Assembly: GCA_937861125.1 (NCBI GenBank)
Contig: CALMAY010000038.1
Location: forward strand, 27,942 to 91,941
Length of the DNA: 64,000 nt
From: an uncultured bacterium
GTDB lineage: Bacteria > Patescibacteriota > Patescibacteriia > Magasanikbacterales > UBA922
Direction of reading: 5' to 3'
This document shows positions 15,900 to 28,915 of this stretch, in pieces (the stretch's first letter is position 1; every line of letters begins with the position of its first letter). Both the position numbers and the translations under genes were made by a program. The notes under the pieces are model-generated. The model had not been told where the DNA came from and searched no databases. It worked only from the letters and a program-made list of their open reading frames with translations.

Positions 15900-16451
15900 A
15901 TGAGCATGTTATCCGTATTTAAAGAACAGATGCAGAACGCTATTGATCATTTAAAAAAAGAGGTTGCGACACTTCGTACCGGTCGTGCTACTCCAGCTAT
16001 TGTTGAGGACGTTTCTATCGAAGCGTATGGTATGCGTCAGCCACTGAAAGCACTAGCTTCTATTAGTATTTTGGATGCAAAAACATTGCAGGTAGAGCCA
16101 TGGGACAAATCACAGATGCAGGCGATTGATTCTGGTATTCGTGCTGGTAACCTTGGGTTTAACCCGGTCAATGATGGAAAGGTGATTCGTATTTCACTTC
16201 CAGACCTTACTGCGGATCGTCGTCAGGAGCTTATTAAAGTACTCAATCGCAAACTAGAAGAAGCACGGGTATCAATTCGTCAGGTACGTGAAGATGCACG
16301 TACAGAGATTGGTAATGCGGTAGATGAGAAGTTGTTGTCTGAGGATGAAAAGTTTAAGCATTTTGATGATATCGAAAAAATGACCAAAGAGTTCAATGAA
16401 ATGACACGAGCAATTGGCGAAGAAAAAGAAAAAGAGATTTTGACTGTGTAA
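15900..16451 (+). CDS. frr: ribosome recycling factor
   Basis: LKKEVATLRTGRATPAIVEDVSIEAYG and PDLTADRRQELIK. Confidence 0.9.
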   Translation: MSMLSVFKEQMQNAIDHLKKEVATLRTGRATPAIVEDVSIEAYGMRQPLKALASISILDAKTLQVEPWDKSQMQAIDSGIRAGNLGFNPVNDGKVIRISLPDLTADRRQELIKVLNRKLEEARVSIRQVREDARTEIGNAVDEKLLSEDEKFKHFDDIEKMTKEFNEMTRAIGEEKEKEILTV

Positions 16452-16455
16452 CGAT

Positions 16456-16902
16456 ATGCGTTGTGTACTGCAAAAAGTTACACGCGCACAGGTAACTGTG
16501 AATCAAAAAACCGTTGGCGACATTGCCCACGGTTTTGTTCTTTTGCTTGGTGTGACGCATACTGATACTCACAAAGATGTTGAGTATTTAGCCGAAAAAA
16601 TATTGAAGTTACGACTGTTTGCTGATCTTGGGAGTGATACGTTTATGGAGAAAAATATTATTGAAGTTGGTGGAAGTATTTTGATAGTGTCACAATTTAC
16701 ACTGTATGGTGATTGTTCGAAAGGGACGCGACCGAGCTTTACAGATGCTGCCAAGCCCGATGTGGCAAAACCACTCTATGAACACTTCGTTTCGTACATG
16801 CGAGAAAAGGTGGTTGAGGTACAGACAGGGGAGTTTGGTGCACACATGGATGTATCGCTGACAAATGATGGGCCTATTACTCTGGTATTAGAATCAAAAT
16901 AA
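16456..16902 (+). CDS. dtd: D-aminoacyl-tRNA deacylase
   Basis: MRCVLQKV..A.V, LLLGVTHTD, ILIVSQFTLYGDCSKGTRPSF and NDGPITL. Confidence 0.9.
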   Translation: MRCVLQKVTRAQVTVNQKTVGDIAHGFVLLLGVTHTDTHKDVEYLAEKILKLRLFADLGSDTFMEKNIIEVGGSILIVSQFTLYGDCSKGTRPSFTDAAKPDVAKPLYEHFVSYMREKVVEVQTGEFGAHMDVSLTNDGPITLVLESK

Positions 16903-16931
16903 AAACACCCCATATATATCGGGGTGTTTTT
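16901..16931. terminator. bidirectional terminator
   Basis: AAAAACACCCC-atatatat-CGGGGTGTTTTT. Confidence 0.75.
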
Positions 16932-16932
16932 A

Positions 16933-17319
16933 TTATAGCAAAGGACTTTTCTCGGACTGCCAGTATTCTCGCAGAGATGCAATTTTTTCATCTCTGATTT
17001 CCATAATCGCCACTTCTTTCATGTGGACGCGAACGTGGTCGGTATTGTTGTCAAACCAGGCTTCCCATTCAGCGATGAGTGTATCCTCTATAGTGTAGTA
17101 GGTGAGAAGTTTGAATTCGATGTTGGATTGTTCTGTACATACCTTGCTATTCCAGTAGGCGGCGATTTCACTATGTCCGCGCATTGGTTCTCTGAGAACA
17201 CGTTCATGGTATGTTCCATCTTCTGTAAAGATGCTCAAGATTTTTGGTGTGTCTTGTGTTGTCCATGCTTCGCTGTATGTGTGAAGAAGTGTTTCTGCTT
17301 GTGTTTGTGTGAGTGACAT
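16933..17319 (-). CDS. SnoaL/NTF2-like fold protein
   Basis: Start trimmed to MSLTQTQAETLLHTYSEAWTTQD... The track N-terminal extension overlaps the upstream gene. Confidence 0.5.
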   Translation of the reverse strand: MSLTQTQAETLLHTYSEAWTTQDTPKILSIFTEDGTYHERVLREPMRGHSEIAAYWNSKVCTEQSNIEFKLLTYYTIEDTLIAEWEAWFDNNTDHVRVHMKEVAIMEIRDEKIASLREYWQSEKSPLL

Positions 17320-17326
17320 AGTATGT

Positions 17327-17926
17327 TTAGGTATTTGTAATAAGTGTTGTTGGTATTTGTCCGCTTTGCTCCAAAAGAAAGTTGTGACGTGCTGCAAAAG
17401 CAGCTCGCGCCTCAGGGAGCACAATTTTTTTATCCCAATCTTTCATTGCCTTTTTAACATTACCCTGCATGAGCTCGGTGAAATGTGTGCCTGGATTTTC
17501 GTACCACCAGAGTGAAAAGAATGGTCCGATTAAATGTGCACAGCCATCTGCGGAGGAGATAATTTTTATTTCAATGGGTGTCGCATCGCTCCAGAGATCT
17601 ATTTTTTTATCCATGATATCGACATACTCTATTGCGCGCTGTGCAAATGATTCATCAAAGCCATATTCTAGTAGTTTTTCTTTTCCCTTTGTGAGTGTTG
17701 TTTCGTATTGATTGGCAAAATCAAGAATCTTGCCATAATCATGAAGCCAGACGAGCGTATGCACGAGGTCGCGATCTGCTGTTGGATATTTATCACAGAG
17801 CTCAAGAGCTATCTTTTCAACAATGTTGAGGTGGTAGGTGATAAACCATTCGTGGTGAATGAAGTCTGGATTTTGTGAGGCTTCAATGACGTGGGCTTTG
17901 AATTGCTCAATATGTTGTGATGCCAT
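17327..17926 (-). CDS. HD-domain phosphohydrolase
   Basis: [11 protein letters not shown] (H...HD) motif. Confidence 0.6.
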
Positions 17927-17935
17927 AGAGTATTG

Positions 17936-18748
17936 TTATAAAAATAAAAGCAAACTTCCGGCCATCAACATCATTCCAGAAATGAGCCCATAAAGAACAA
18001 TGTGGTGTTCACCAAATTCTTCGGCTGCAGGGATAAGTTCGTCGAGTGAAATATATACCATAATTCCTGCAACACCGGCAAAAATAATACCAAACAGACT
18101 TTCACTAAAAATGTTGCGGAGCAAAAAGAATCCAATAGCCGCGCCAACTGGTTCAGAGAGTCCAGACAAAAAAGACCAAGTAAATGCTTGTACTCGGCTT
18201 TTGGTCGCATAGTATATTGGGATAGCGACAGCAATTCCTTCTGGAATATTGTGAATCGCAATAGCGACGGCAATACTGATACCAAGAAATGGATCGGCAA
18301 TAGCTGCCATAAATGTTGCAAGACCTTCTGGAAAATTGTGAATACCAATAGCAATCGCAGAAAACATGCCCATTCGGTAGAGGTGGTGTGTTTTTGGTTT
18401 TGTGGGATGAGTACCAAGTTCGGTAATCGTATTGAGCTCATCAGGGGTATCTGAGATAGGAACGAGTTTATCAATCAATGCTGCAAGTGCAATCCCACCA
18501 AAAAAAGCAAGAGTTGTGTACAGGTATCCAAGTGCATCGCCATGTACTTCGACGAGAGATATACGTGCTTTTTGAAATATTTCAATAAATGAAACATACA
18601 ACATGACCCCAGCAGAGAAACCAAGTGAAAGGGCGAGAAAGCGATGGCTAAATTGTTTTGAGTATATCGCAATAAGACTTCCGATACCCGTAGAGAGACC
18701 AGCAAGTGCTGTAAGTCCAAAGGCAGTAAGAACGGCATGTGTATCCAT
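17936..18748 (-). CDS. zupT: ZIP-family zinc transporter ZupT
   Basis: GIHNFPEGLA and AIAIHNIPEGIAV paired motifs; eight hydrophobic segments. Confidence 0.85.
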   Translation of the reverse strand: MDTHAVLTAFGLTALAGLSTGIGSLIAIYSKQFSHRFLALSLGFSAGVMLYVSFIEIFQKARISLVEVHGDALGYLYTTLAFFGGIALAALIDKLVPISDTPDELNTITELGTHPTKPKTHHLYRMGMFSAIAIGIHNFPEGLATFMAAIADPFLGISIAVAIAIHNIPEGIAVAIPIYYATKSRVQAFTWSFLSGLSEPVGAAIGFFLLRNIFSESLFGIIFAGVAGIMVYISLDELIPAAEEFGEHHIVLYGLISGMMLMAGSLLLFL

Positions 18749-18757
18749 AGTATGTCT

Positions 18758-18786
18758 ATACTACCTGTATGCGAGGAGAAAATCAA
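18758..18786 (-). promoter_or_regulatory. promoter TTGATT-N17-TAGTAT for zupT (near-leaderless)
   Basis: Minus-strand -35 at 18786-18781 and -10 at 18763-18758. The ATG begins at 18748, 9 nt after the -10. Confidence 0.5.
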
Positions 18787-18795
18787 GCCTCTATC

Positions 18796-18824
18796 TTGAC
18801 TTTTTTCGCTACATTGAGTACTAT
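18796..18824 (+). promoter_or_regulatory. promoter TTGACT-N17-TACTAT for the glyQS leader
   Basis: -35 at 18796-18801, 17-nt spacer, -10 at 18819-18824. Confidence 0.6.
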
Positions 18825-18829
18825 GAATG

Positions 18830-18975
18830 TATTCATGATGACGCAGGGTGGCACCTGCCGAGTGAATAGATGTTTCAAGAGTGTCTCGATCTGTATCGAG
18901 AAACTCGGGTGGAACCTCCCTTCGACGCACTTTGTTTGCTCAGGGACCCGAGACAGTTTGTAGCTGTCTTTTTTT
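18830..18975 (+). promoter_or_regulatory. candidate glycine T-box leader with a hairpin-only (ultrashort) Stem I
   Basis: K-turn-like base: UAUUCAU-GAU-GA...GA-GUGAAUA. Helix GCAGG/CCUGC closes loop GUGGCA (GGC+A, 18850-18853). Stem UCUCGAU-cugu-AUCGAGA (18884-18901). CUCGGG-[UGGAACC]-UCCCU...AGGGA-CCCGAG (18904-18952). Hairpin AGACAG-uuuguag-CUGUCU plus U6 (18951-18975). Confidence 0.55.
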
Positions 18976-19005
18976 ATTTGTTTTCTTACGTTATACTTAG
19001 TGTAT

Positions 19006-20403
19006 ATGACAAACACAACACTCGACACAATTGTGTCACTGGCGAAGCGTCGTGGGTTTATCTTTCCGGGGAGTGAGATCTATGGTGGTCTGGCCAACTC
19101 TTGGGATTACGGTCCACTTGGAGTTGAACTCAAAAACAATATCAAAAAACTTTGGTGGCAGACCTTTGTGCGTGAGCGCATGGATATGGTCGGACTTGAT
19201 GCTGCGATCCTCATGAATCCTCGTGTGTGGGAAGCGTCTGGACATGTGGGGTCATTTACTGATCCGTTGGTTGATTGTAAAGAATGCAAACAGCGTTTTC
19301 GTGGTGATAAATTACTCGAAGAAAAATTGTTTGTTGAAGAGGTGGCTGGAATCAAACTCGAGGATGTAAGTCCACGTCTGATGAGCGAATCCGTACCGTG
19401 TCCAGCGTGTGGCAAAGTAAACTGGACCGAAGCAAAACGATTCAACCTCATGTTCAAAACAAAGCAAGGTGTTATTGACGGTGAGGGTGCTGATATCTAT
19501 CTGCGTCCTGAGACTGCACAGGGTATTTTTGTGAATTTCAAAAATGTCTCTCAAACACAGCGTCTGAAATTGCCATTTGGAATCGCACAGATCGGAAAAG
19601 CATTTCGCAATGAAATTACTCCAGGAAACTTTACGTTCCGTACTCGCGAATTTGAACAAATGGAAATTGAGTATTTCTTTGATCCAGAAAACACTGATTG
19701 GAAAGTGGTATATGAAAATTGGAAAAATGATACCTGGCAATTTTTGACCAAGACACTTGGGATTCGTGAAGAAAATCTTCGCTTCCGTGATCACGATCCA
19801 GATGAGTTGTCGCATTATTCTAAAGGTACAGTAGATGTGGAGTACAAATTCCCATGGGGTTGGGGAGAGCTCTGTGCTGCGGCAGCGTATCGCACTGATT
19901 TTGATCTCAAACAGCACATGGAATTTAGTGGTGAGGATTTGCGCTATACTGATCCACAGGATCCTCAGCGTAAATTTATTCCACATGTCATGGAGCCATC
20001 ATTTGGGTGTGATCGTGTGGCGCTTGCAGTACTCCTTGATTCATATCAGGAGGAAGCGGCTCAGGATGAAGATGGAGAAGTGCGTGTGATGCTTGGTCTC
20101 GCGAAACGTGTTGCGCCATATCAAATTGCAGTATTACCTCTTTCAAAAAAAGATGAACTCTCAGGAGTATCTCGTGAGATTGTGCAGACACTGGCAAAGC
20201 AGTTTGCAGTCACATACGATGAAACACAGTCAATCGGAAAACGCTATCGCCGTCAGGATGAGATTGGTACACCGTTTTGTGTGACGATAGATTTTGACAC
20301 ACTCAATGACAATGCTGTAACAGTGCGTGAACGTGATAGTATGAAACAGGAACGTATTGCGATTGCAGAGTTGGTTTCTTATTTACAAAAACAGATCGTA
20401 TAG
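19006..20403 (+). CDS. glyQS: glycine--tRNA ligase (dimeric GlyQS type)
   Basis: [56 protein letters not shown] and a C-terminal anticodon-binding pattern. ATG 19006 preferred over GTG 19000. Confidence 0.9.
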
Positions 20404-22499: not shown

Positions 22500-23390
22500 A
22501 TGAGTTTTATTGGACCTGTCATTTTATTTCTTGTTTCGGCCAGTTTGGTTGGTTTTGTCTTGTCCAAAAAATGGCGTCAGGTGTCATTGCTTAATGTTGA
22601 TTCGATTCCAGAAGTCAAAGAACAGCGCAAGAAAGAGGAAATCTTGGCCAAGCGTATTGAATTACAGGCGCAGTCTCTTCAGGAGAGAATCAAAAAACAA
22701 TTGATACCAGTTGTTGAATCATATCAACAATTTCGTGTGGCAATGCGTAGTTATATCTCTCGCATTGAGAAAGATATGGTTCGTTCAAAGCGAAAAGCTG
22801 CTAAAGCTGCAGCTGCTGCAGTAGATCCTACTGAACTTGCACAGGTTCTTGAGGGTGCACATCGCTTTGCTTCTGCAAAAGAGTGGCAAAAAGCAGAAGA
22901 GGCATATATTGCAATCTTGCGTACATCACCAAAAAATATAGAAGCCTATCGTGGTTTGGCCAAGGTGTACTATGAGCAGGATCAGCTCAAAGAGGCCAAA
23001 GAGACATATCAGTTCGTGCTGCATCTGGAACCGCAAGATGATGGCACTTATGTTATGTTGGGAGACATTGCTATGGAAGAGAAAAAATACGAAGAGGCAG
23101 TAGAAGCATATCAGCAGGCTGTTTTGATCAATCCACAACTTTCTCCTCGTTTTTTCAAGCTTTCTGAAGCGTTTCTTGCGTTAGCTCAGCCACAGACAGC
23201 TCTTGAGGCGATAAAGCAGGCTGTGTCGCTTGAGCCACAAAATCCAAAGTATCTTGACAGTTTGGTAGAAACTGCTATACTATGCCGCGAAGCCGATGTT
23301 GCTACTGAGGCACTGCAACAGCTTCGAATGGTCAACCCAGAAAATCAAAAGTTAGTTCTTTTTAAAGAAAAAATTTCAGCATTAGTATAG
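22500..23390 (+). CDS. membrane-anchored TPR-repeat protein
   Basis: N-terminal TM helix. Repeated A..Y..A....P 34-aa units, for example AYRGLAKVYYEQDQLKEAKETYQFVLHLEPQD. Confidence 0.7.
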   Translation: MSFIGPVILFLVSASLVGFVLSKKWRQVSLLNVDSIPEVKEQRKKEEILAKRIELQAQSLQERIKKQLIPVVESYQQFRVAMRSYISRIEKDMVRSKRKAAKAAAAAVDPTELAQVLEGAHRFASAKEWQKAEEAYIAILRTSPKNIEAYRGLAKVYYEQDQLKEAKETYQFVLHLEPQDDGTYVMLGDIAMEEKKYEEAVEAYQQAVLINPQLSPRFFKLSEAFLALAQPQTALEAIKQAVSLEPQNPKYLDSLVETAILCREADVATEALQQLRMVNPENQKLVLFKEKISALV

Positions 23391-25429: not shown

Positions 25430-25458
25430 TTGACAAAACGACGCATTTTTTGTATACT
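25430..25458 (+). promoter_or_regulatory. promoter TTGACA-N17-TATACT for tRNA-Thr(GGU)
   Basis: -35 at 25430-25435 and -10 at 25453-25458. The tRNA starts 19 nt after the -10. Confidence 0.65.
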
Positions 25459-28462: not shown

Positions 28463-28890
28463 TACGTACAGTACAAATTTGTTCGTTCATGGTAGGAGTA
28501 TATCTGATAGGGTTGTATTTTACATATATTTATCCTGCGTTTGAGTTGTTTGTTTGGATGAGTCCGCTTATGCATACGTTGGGTGGGCTTGCTACTGCAT
28601 TTACTCTTGATCAGTTCTATCGTCAATGTAGTGTTAGGTGGAAGGTGCGTATTGAACCGGTGGGCGTGTATATGGTGTACCTCATTGCAATGACGGTCTG
28701 TGTGGGGGTGGTGTGGGAGATACATGAGTATCTTCATGATGTGCTCTTTGCTAGTGTTTGGCAACCGGGTATAGGAGATACACTTCTTGATTTGGTGATG
28801 GATACGGTTGGGGCAGTCCTGTATGTACTCTTTTTCTTGACAATAGAGCCTAAAAAGATACAAAAAACAAAAGGGAGAGGTAGGGCTTGA
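28447..28890 (+). CDS. hypothetical 4-TM membrane protein
   Basis: Track ORF with four hydrophobic segments; overlaps the nfo end by 16 nt. No motif recognised. Confidence 0.45.
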   Translation: MWNQIIRTVQICSFMVGVYLIGLYFTYIYPAFELFVWMSPLMHTLGGLATAFTLDQFYRQCSVRWKVRIEPVGVYMVYLIAMTVCVGVVWEIHEYLHDVLFASVWQPGIGDTLLDLVMDTVGAVLYVLFFLTIEPKKIQKTKGRGRA

Positions 28891-28915
28891 CAGATAGAGC
28901 TGTTTTTGCTATACT
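28887..28915 (+). promoter_or_regulatory. promoter TTGACA-N17-TATACT for rpmG and tRNA-Trp
   Basis: -35 at 28887-28892 and -10 at 28910-28915. Confidence 0.65.

Follow-up and report, generated by a model that had tools for sequence, protein, structure and literature searches.

The question raised by this locus is whether a leader whose Stem I is reduced to one short hairpin can still work as a glycine-specific T-box. The locus is the divergent intergenic region at positions 18749-19005 of the 64-kb stretch of contig CALMAY010000038.1 analysed here (the window), between a ZIP transporter gene (17936-18748, minus strand) and glyS (ATG at 19006), which encodes a glycyl-tRNA synthetase (GlyRS). 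Our analysis indicates that the leader is probably a transcription attenuator derived from a T-box and sensing tRNA-Gly, whose Stem I is ultrashort and which has neither an elbow platform nor a Stem II. It occurs once in the window, is roughly 145 nucleotides (nt) long, and the leader segment folds better than its shuffles (z = -2.76). A check of the sequence, together with promoter and hairpin scans, recovered in place all the elements that a first-pass annotation of this DNA had listed. They are the following.

18796-18824, plus strand: sigma-70-type promoter TTGACT-N17-TACTAT (motif scan)
18830-18868, plus strand: P1, the ultrashort Stem I, with a layout like that of the base of the Rfam T-box Stem I (5' aUGAaa / 3' gGA)
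18830-18836 / 18862-18868, plus strand: P1 base helix of 7 base pairs (bp), UAUUCAU/GUGAAUA (folding and covariation)
18837-18842 / 18859-18861, plus strand: kink-turn (K-turn)-like 6/3 internal loop of P1, with GAU 18837-18839, GA 18840-18841 and C 18842 opposite C 18859 and GA 18860-18861
18843-18847 / 18854-18858, plus strand: P1 upper helix, 5 bp, GCAGG/CCUGC
18848-18853, plus strand: P1 terminal loop GUGGCA, 6 nt
18849-18853, plus strand: putative Specifier UGGCA, GGC at 18850-18852 followed by the purine A
18869-18883, plus strand: single-stranded linker, 15 nt, ending in the purine string GAGUG 18879-18883 (RRRxG, with an RAG core)
18884-18901, plus strand: Stem III, 7-bp hairpin (loop CUGU); AA comes next at 18902-18903
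18904-18952, plus strand: antiterminator, consisting of A1, bulge and A2
18904-18909 / 18947-18952, plus strand: helix A1, CUCGGG/CCCGAG
18910-18916, plus strand: T-box bulge UGGAACC, 7 nt, directly after CUCGGG
18917-18946, plus strand: helix A2, UCCCU...AGGGA, with a variable distal part
18950-18970, plus strand: terminator-like hairpin GAGACAGUU-UGU-AGCUGUCUU, 9 bp (hairpin scan)

T-box features were defined as in PMC7583486, PMC11404447 and PMC11297988. The T-box bulge has the form UGGNACC, its UGGN abutting A1, and UGGAACC is the glycyl form (PMC11404447); a purine string in the arrangement 5'-RRRxG–Stem III–AA-3' is the T-box discriminator motif (PMC7583486, PMC11404447). In P1, GGC-A sits on the 3' side of the loop, abutting the 3' strand of the helix, and its glycine codon matches the downstream glyS. 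The K-turn was recognised at the level of sequence: GA/GA is invariant, the 3-nt bulge reads NNU, and the asymmetric 6/3 loop is as in the Rfam consensus (aUGAaa/gGA). P1 ends at the Specifier in its 6-nt loop, and no S-turn, hinge or elbow platform (AG bulge/distal loop) was found in it. The 15 nt between P1 and Stem III are too few to hold the distal module of Stem I, and the linker, which is 11-16 nt long and single-stranded in all seven sequences compared below, has no room for a Stem II or a IIA/B pseudoknot either. The distal platform, Stem II and IIA/B, which had been described as missing, are thus indeed absent. At the other end of the leader, GAG 18950-18952 belongs both to the 5' end of the terminator and to the 3' strand of A1, and these are the only nucleotides that the two share. 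The U7 of the terminator (18969-18975) starts within the 3' arm of the hairpin and ends 30 nt before the glyS ATG. Hairpin-plus-U terminators are enriched in the genome (27 found versus 14.7±4.5 expected).

We compared seven distinct leader sequences: that of the window and those of the retrieved loci (L numbers) L161/L162, L168, L169, L174, L175 and L176; L177/L178 are identical to the window, and the ENA assemblies ERZ724532 (NODE_4_length_266703) and ERZ724549 (NODE_11) carry leader and glyS in identical form. The orthologous leaders were obtained solely through exact-protein look-ups of close GlyRS homologues (93-98% identical, plus the window protein). The final alignment was registered by hand because in those made with MAFFT and with a covariance model Stem III of L169 was out of register; variable unpaired stretches were N-masked, and the unpadded sequences were checked against their loci. 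The genomes are appreciably diverged, since at third codon positions glyS is 58-82% identical to that of the window; the identity of the leaders is 70-88%. Over 36 pairs and seven sequences, 97.6% of the helix cells form standard pairs, and 13 of the pairs show changes on both sides. None of 500 shuffles reached this paired share or this number of double changes, and controls in which the partner was slid by 1-3 columns had 27-47% of cells paired and 0-2 double-change pairs. The helices that the first-pass annotation had put forward for a covariation check therefore do covary.

Double changes are present in the P1 base helix, the P1 upper helix, Stem III, A1 and A2. The P1 base helix has two (U-A to A-U and A-U to G-C) and one further pair that varies on one side, while the upper helix has double changes in three of its five pairs with 100% pairing, GCAGG/CCUGC becoming CUGGG/CCCAG. 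Five of the seven pairs of Stem III are double-changed, and the sequence of this stem is wholly different in L169 and L176. A1 shows a single double change (G-C to A-U, in L169). A2 has two double-changed pairs: the terminal one, which is U-A or C-G, and the inner (fifth) one, which is G-C, A-U or U-A. All cells of A1 and A2 pair.

The unpaired bases that are invariant in 7/7 sequences are UGGCA, the third bulge base of the K-turn (U), GA/GA, GAG, the AA after Stem III, and UGGAACC. Position 1 of the P1 loop varies (G, U or A), and so do the Stem III loop, the distal part of A2, the terminator loop and the linker. The purine string is GAGUG or GAGCG directly before Stem III in six leaders and AAGAG in L176. 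In the seven genomes, 98 of 300 third-codon positions of glyS (33%) are invariant; at that rate, the chance of finding 12 invariant loop and bulge bases is about 1.5e-6, a rough figure that assumes independent sites. The GGC loop and the UGGAACC bulge, whose conservation in orthologous leaders had been made a touchstone of the T-box proposal, have been kept as stems covaried and other loops drifted. Judged from these alignments, the leader is a real, conserved structured RNA, beyond chance.

On the tRNA side, no tRNA-Gly gene was found in the 64-kb window or in any retrieved locus of the leader clade. The only tRNA-Gly(GCC) recovered is that of L098, from another lineage, which has U73 and the anticodon loop UUGCCAA. 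U73 is the discriminator of bacterial tRNA-Gly. UGGCA is complementary to U33-A37 of the L098 loop, and the UGGA of the bulge is complementary to a tRNA 3' UCCA, i.e. to U73; the same bulge A is found in every glycyl T-box recovered. A loop-loop helix of 4-5 bp may compensate for the lost tRNA contacts. L098 is an unassigned metagenome contig, in which a tRNA-Val(TAC) gene and the tRNA-Gly(GCC) gene (1737-1887) lie about 110 nt upstream of glyS, with CCA not encoded. As to the tRNA genes of the window, their order tRNA-Thr, tRNA-Tyr ... tRNA-Thr resembles the E. coli thrU-tyrU-glyT-thrT cluster, minus tRNA-Gly, and near-consensus promoters (TTGACA-N16/17-TATACT, 11/12 matches) were noted upstream of tRNA genes at 23254-23283, 25430-25458 and 28887-28915.

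We then consider how the leader could switch. The 9-bp terminator is worth -9.0 kcal/mol; with GAG engaged in A1, 6 bp remain, worth -3.8 kcal/mol, and an unpaired C separates this remainder from the U-tract. In full-length folds, the minimum-energy state contains the complete terminator in 7/7 sequences, which makes OFF the predicted default state. In six of these folds, the CUC at the start of A1 pairs with the GAG of the purine string, extending Stem III, so that the downstream GAG is free for the bottom 3 bp of the terminator. In five, the UGGAAC of the bulge is paired with GUUUCA or GUUCCG in the linker. The window has GUUUCA at 18872-18877, complementary to bulge positions 18910-18915; L176 has GUUCCG, and such a hexamer is absent in L161 and L169. 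This linker hexamer could act as a sequestrator of the bulge. Forcing A1 costs +2.3 to +10.5 kcal/mol in the seven sequences. In the T-box model, A1 is stabilised by the 3' end of uncharged tRNA, which stacks on it (PMC7583486). An agent that stabilises A1 would reverse the default OFF state, and we infer that uncharged tRNA would turn the leader ON. Two other rearrangements, a strand exchange between Stem III and A1 and a pairing between the terminator and P1b, were rejected, as neither is conserved in L169.

The data show the secondary structure of the leader, its conservation and covariation, its likeness to T-box discriminators and its place before glyS; binding of tRNA, sensing of its charging and control of termination are inferred, in a mechanism that would run as follows. 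Transcription would start at about 18830 (the start is probably at 18829-18832), and P1 would be the proximal part of a T-box Stem I, with a K-turn base and with GGC plus a purine in the terminal loop. Without tRNA, the CUC of A1 would pair with the upstream GAG, and the bulge, in most versions, would be held by the linker. This would leave the downstream GAG to complete the 9-bp terminator, and transcription would stop at U7. Uncharged tRNA-Gly(GCC) would bind through a loop-loop helix between its anticodon loop and UGGCA and through pairing of its NCCA end with the bulge, stacked on A1. The bound tRNA would lock A1 and keep GAG from the terminator, lowering its stability from -9.0 to -3.8 kcal/mol, and the weakened terminator would let RNA polymerase read into glyS.

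Several observations weigh against this reading. Some concern the switch itself: when the 3' domain is folded in isolation, an A1 of 5 bp and a terminator of 7 bp are predicted to coexist at nearly equal energy (-22.0 versus -21.5 kcal/mol), and terminator and antiterminator overlap by 3 nt only, whereas in canonical leaders the terminator takes up the entire 3' half of the antiterminator. The first-pass annotation had called the mutual exclusivity of the two structures weak; this short overlap and the predicted coexistence in the isolated domain are in line with that, but the full-length OFF folds and the cost of reaching the ON state speak for a firmer exclusion than it had allowed. Others concern tRNA recognition. 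The terminal pair of A2 is U-A in five leaders and C-G in two, never G•U or G-C. Transcriptional T-boxes generally need the elbow module, and a truncated Stem I that has no Stem II beside it hardly binds tRNA (PMC7583486); in the B. subtilis glyQS T-box, mutation of the elbow contact costs about 50-fold in affinity (PMC6197855). Given these reports of a need for the elbow platform or, with a truncated Stem I, for Stem II, the affinity of the present leader for tRNA may be low. As to covariation, the terminator stem and most of A1 never vary, so that the terminator is conserved without proof of this kind; the register of Stem III in L169 and L176 was set by hand; and all seven leaders come from a single narrow clade, which means that independent compensatory events are few. 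Finally, there is the search with RF00230 that had been suggested as a check. No T-box match was obtained at the gathering threshold in the whole window, nor with Rfam at E<=10 on 401 nt; when the search was narrowed to 111 nt, the T-box family came out top of 4227 families, on the 3' half of the leader (15 bits, E=0.1, model positions 148-219), in an alignment covering AGUG-Stem III-AA-A1-GGGUGGNACC, with a score far below the gathering score of 93 bits.

As a control, the full-length Allobacillus glyS T-box (L020:2753-2928) scored 76.2 bits, also below 93, and none of three Firmicute glyS T-boxes (L020, L013, L027) was reported at Rfam gathering. Glycyl T-boxes, which are without Stem II, seem to be systematically under-called by the Rfam 15 threshold. 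We also used two models of our own. R1 was built from the window-clade leader; its best non-self matches were the glyS T-box leaders L020, L027, L013 and L099, aligned over Stem III and the antiterminator. L013, L020 and L027 are Firmicute leaders, and L099 is a metagenome contig without assigned origin. R2, an antiterminator model, was made from L013, L020, L027, L099, L129, L134 and L150 only, the window clade being left out. It ranked the window site first in the 64 kb (13 bits, E about 0.1) and found the clade members that have a compact A2 with better scores (L174, 22.3 bits, E=5e-4; L161, 21.5 bits, E=9e-4).

Other matches were set aside. Those to opuB (minus strand, E=0.9), SNORD113 (E=9.4) and TYMV_upPK are noise, the remaining GGTGGNACC matches in the window fall within coding regions, and the R2 matches in L057 and L108 are located inside glyS. 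The TGGAACC of L125 is no T-box element, being part of the loop that closes a long repeat hairpin. Short-repeat arrays that form long inverted repeats (GGUUGGAUGG..., GGCAACCGGCAACC, CUGGUUU/AAACCAG) were seen upstream of glyS in the Peregrinibacteria-like contigs L005 (2850-2950), L007 (2960-3000) and L125 (1880-1980); these are not T-boxes. Among the other Rfam families, DUF3800-II RNA (RF02961) was detected on a Candidatus Falkowbacteria contig (L066:314-383, minus strand) with 68.9 bits, above gathering.

The conservation of the leader also bears on the foremost alternative, namely that it is a decayed T-box relic that no longer senses tRNA and merely sets a basal level of glyS expression, as a constitutive, partly leaky attenuator or a structured 5' untranslated region. 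No change was seen in the 12 unpaired nucleotides that matter solely for contact with tRNA (UGGCA and UGGAACC), in spite of the divergence of synonymous sites and of other loops; compensatory changes maintain the stems; and the RRRxG–Stem III–AA string would not have been retained in a remnant. Decay would account for the missing elbow platform, S-turn and Stem II, for the replacement of the G•U sensor, and for a terminator that overlaps A1 by 3 nt and can coexist with it in the isolated 3' domain, and it is in line with the poor tRNA binding of truncated Stem I's that have no Stem II (PMC7583486). It would also imply an old remnant, and the gene order around glyS argues for a recent gain. In relatives whose GlyRS is 72-78% identical, the genes run BNR protein-frr-glyS-M16-tpiA, with glyS 10-40 nt behind frr and no leader; in the window clade, a block of dtd (plus), SnoaL (minus), an unknown gene (minus) and ZIP (minus) separates frr from glyS. 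The leader thus looks like a clade-specific and recent acquisition, and a relic is in our view unlikely. Since these relatives are without the leader, covariation could not be sampled more widely.

A second alternative keeps the binding of tRNA-Gly and changes the readout: the leader would report tRNA abundance irrespective of charging, or would take effect through the stability or the translation of the mRNA. In canonical T-boxes it is mainly the G•U wobble at the base of A2 that senses the aminoacyl group by steric means (PMC7583486), although G-C is reported to be tolerated at this place (PMC11404447). With the wobble lost and a Watson-Crick pair (U-A or C-G) at the end of A2, a readout blind to charging would be expected on this view, and the minimal overlap of the terminator and the lack of a clear Shine-Dalgarno sequence in the window version fit it as well. 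Two features have nevertheless been kept: the purine string, by which 2'-aminoacyl tRNA is rejected, and the geometry for stacking of A76 on A1 (PMC7583486). A hairpin with U7 directly follows A1 and is fully used in the predicted OFF state, and no leader segment pairs with the start region. We hold such a readout to be quite unlikely.

Some synthetases are autoregulated through mimics of the anticodon arm, as in the case of E. coli thrS. This precedent, the box-C-like AUGAUGA of P1 with an opposing CGA (the weak SNORD113 match, E=9.4) and the binding of YbxF to K-turns of Bacillus T-boxes (PMC7583486) would be in keeping with a K-turn hairpin serving as operator for an L7Ae-family protein or for GlyRS, with an incidental likeness to T-boxes; this is very unlikely, since the P1 loop carries the codon GGC and not the anticodon GCC, and so does not mimic the anticodon arm of tRNA-Gly, since the invariant UGGAACC, the purine string and the covariation of the antiterminator would be left unexplained, and since a protein on the K-turn does not conflict with a genuine T-box, in which such binding is known. 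A leader peptide was considered as well and rejected. Of the two open reading frames (18769-18963 and 18870-19076), the first starts upstream of the promoter, and the leader lengths differ by 6, 12, 15 and 16 nt, so that the reading frame is not preserved.

With the leader, glyS has a promoter to itself. In 7/7 leader versions the -35 element TTGACT is retained and the -10 hexamer is TACTAT, TACTCT or TATACT, and a promoter scan found no further promoter between the terminator and the ATG. The gene that follows is on one line.

19006-20403, plus strand: glyS, class-II alpha2-type glycyl-tRNA synthetase, 465 amino acids (PF00587, PF03129; named relatives are glycine--tRNA ligases)

In a scan of sequence collections, the closest labelled relatives of this GlyRS came from Candidatus Peribacteraceae/Peregrinibacteria metagenome-assembled genomes, with at most 68% identity, and closer homologues carry the source label 'Patescibacteria group bacterium'. 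The host of the leader is a bacterium of the candidate phyla radiation (CPR; Peregrinibacteria/Patescibacteria). The GlyRS scans of genome and metagenome collections yielded only relatives with no more than 68% identity, and the leader was found in none of them.

The neighbourhood of glyS varies. The block inserted between frr and glyS is about 2.5 kb long (window 15900-18748, by comparison with L163-L167 and L170-L173); L161 has a gene for 159 amino acids in the place of ZIP, and L176 has one for 165 amino acids. Between the convergent dtd and SnoaL-like genes of the window lies a strong hairpin of 15 bp (16898-16934), terminator-like in both directions and flanked by A/U tracts. Close relatives have variable small genes between glyS and the M16 peptidase gene, where the window has none: a 23S_rRNA_IVP-family gene in L175 (2054-2404), an open reading frame of 112 amino acids in L174 (2014-2352) and one of 275 amino acids in L161 (2899-3726).

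The first-pass annotation had spoken of an unusually reduced T-box in a lineage in which T-boxes are not typical. The leader is reduced, but it is not a one-off, since we found hairpin-only glycyl T-boxes in four other Patescibacteria glyS leaders. Each of these has a sigma-70-type promoter, a first hairpin with a UGGC loop, a linker, Stem III-AA, a T-box antiterminator and a terminator, and the corresponding GlyRS (L129, L134, L150, L016) groups with those of Parcubacteria, Falkowbacteria and Magasanikiibacteria loci. Their distinguishing features are these.

L129:1760-1960: first-hairpin loop GAGAUUGGCG, 61-nt spacing without intervening hairpins, bulge UGGAAAC
L150:1456-1660: first-hairpin loop AGAUUGGCG, bulge UGGAACC
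L134:1719-1910: first-hairpin loop UUUGGC, bulge UGGAACC
L016:2520-2900: first-hairpin loop UUGGCA, bulge UGGAACC, AT-rich insertion of about 180 nt within A2

The Stem I's of these four were judged by eye and by minimum-energy folding only. R2 scored L129, L134 and L150 at 54-57 bits, and the Rfam T-box model gave L134 and L150 only about 30 bits, with a poor alignment of Stem I. By contrast with the window leader, all four keep a GCG...CGU A2 with G•U and a fully overlapping terminator, and have no K-turn; some carry extra hairpins. We regard as evenly balanced the proposal that the window leader and those of other Patescibacteria form a natural class of minimal transcriptional T-boxes, which would combine a loop-loop helix of at most 5 bp (UGGCA:UGCCA) with NCCA capture, dispense with elbow platform and Stem II, and have a Watson-Crick pair at the site of the G•U sensor. 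In the literature searched, which did not cover subscription journals, we found no report of T-boxes in CPR/Patescibacteria.

The leader puts two rules on T-boxes to the test: that the transcriptional class needs the long Stem I platform for fast capture of the tRNA elbow, and that a naturally truncated Stem I works only together with Stem II and the pseudoknot, in translational ileS leaders (PMC7583486; bioRxiv 10.1101/2023.02.28.530422). Should it prove functional, it would show how small an RNA suffices to read both the identity and the charging of a tRNA, and it would offer a compact scaffold for the engineering of tRNA sensors. If the proposal is true, this would be the smallest working tRNA-sensing riboswitch (about 115-145 nt), and T-box regulation would extend to the CPR, bacteria with tiny genomes and few known regulators. 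Standard annotation misses such leaders, which score 15-30 bits against an Rfam threshold of 93, and T-box regulation in the CPR may for this reason be under-counted.

Among known systems, the leader comes closest to two groups of T-boxes. With the glycyl T-boxes of Bacillota (RF00230; B. subtilis, G. kaustophilus, O. iheyensis) it shares the GlyRS target; a Specifier of the type GGC-purine, located in the 3' part of the Stem I loop; a GA-motif K-turn, with a short helix between it and the Specifier above; the lack of Stem II and IIA/B; and the succession of RRRxG–Stem III–AA, A1, UGGAACC, A2 and a downstream hairpin with U-tract. L013, L020, L027 and L099 have these elements in the order of the window leader (GGC-R, short helix, GA, base helix); in L020, GGC-A, a 4-bp helix and G-GA follow each other consecutively. 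The bulge UGGAACC is identical to that of these four loci and to the published glycyl form (PMC11404447), and the spacing from codon to bulge is 53-57 nt in the clade versus 45-52 nt in Firmicute-type glyS/glyQS T-boxes. The differences from the Bacillota leaders are the lack of an S-turn, a hinge and an AG bulge/distal loop platform, the CPR host, an A2 that reads UCCC/GGGA rather than GCG/CGU, and a terminator that shares 3 nt with the antiterminator rather than its whole 3' half. The canonical leaders L013, L020, L027, L129, L134 and L150 all have G...U at the terminal pair of A2. The window leader thus departs from RF00230 in three canonical membership features (the G•U at the A2 base, a long Stem I with elbow platform, and the Rfam gathering score), and for this reason the statement that it works like a T-box is better supported than standard membership in that family.

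The other group consists of the ultrashort (US) translational ileS T-boxes of Actinobacteria, which were reportedly described by Sherwood et al. in 2015 and for which structures are said to be available from M. tuberculosis and N. farcinica. An ultrashort Stem I with the Specifier in its terminal loop has been described only in these T-boxes (bioRxiv 10.1101/2023.02.28.530422; PMC7583486). The window leader has in common with them the short Stem I, the position of the Specifier in the terminal loop and the absence of an elbow platform. They keep, however, a Stem II (S-turn) and a IIA/B pseudoknot, both essential for tRNA binding, which the window leader is without; they act by sequestration of the Shine-Dalgarno sequence and all precede ileS, whereas the window leader has a terminator, is of the glycine type and precedes glyS. 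Taken with these likenesses and differences, the leader is best filed as a new structural T-box variant: it is of the glycyl type and linked to a terminator, its ultrashort Stem I retains the K-turn, and it has neither Stem II nor the G•U sensor.

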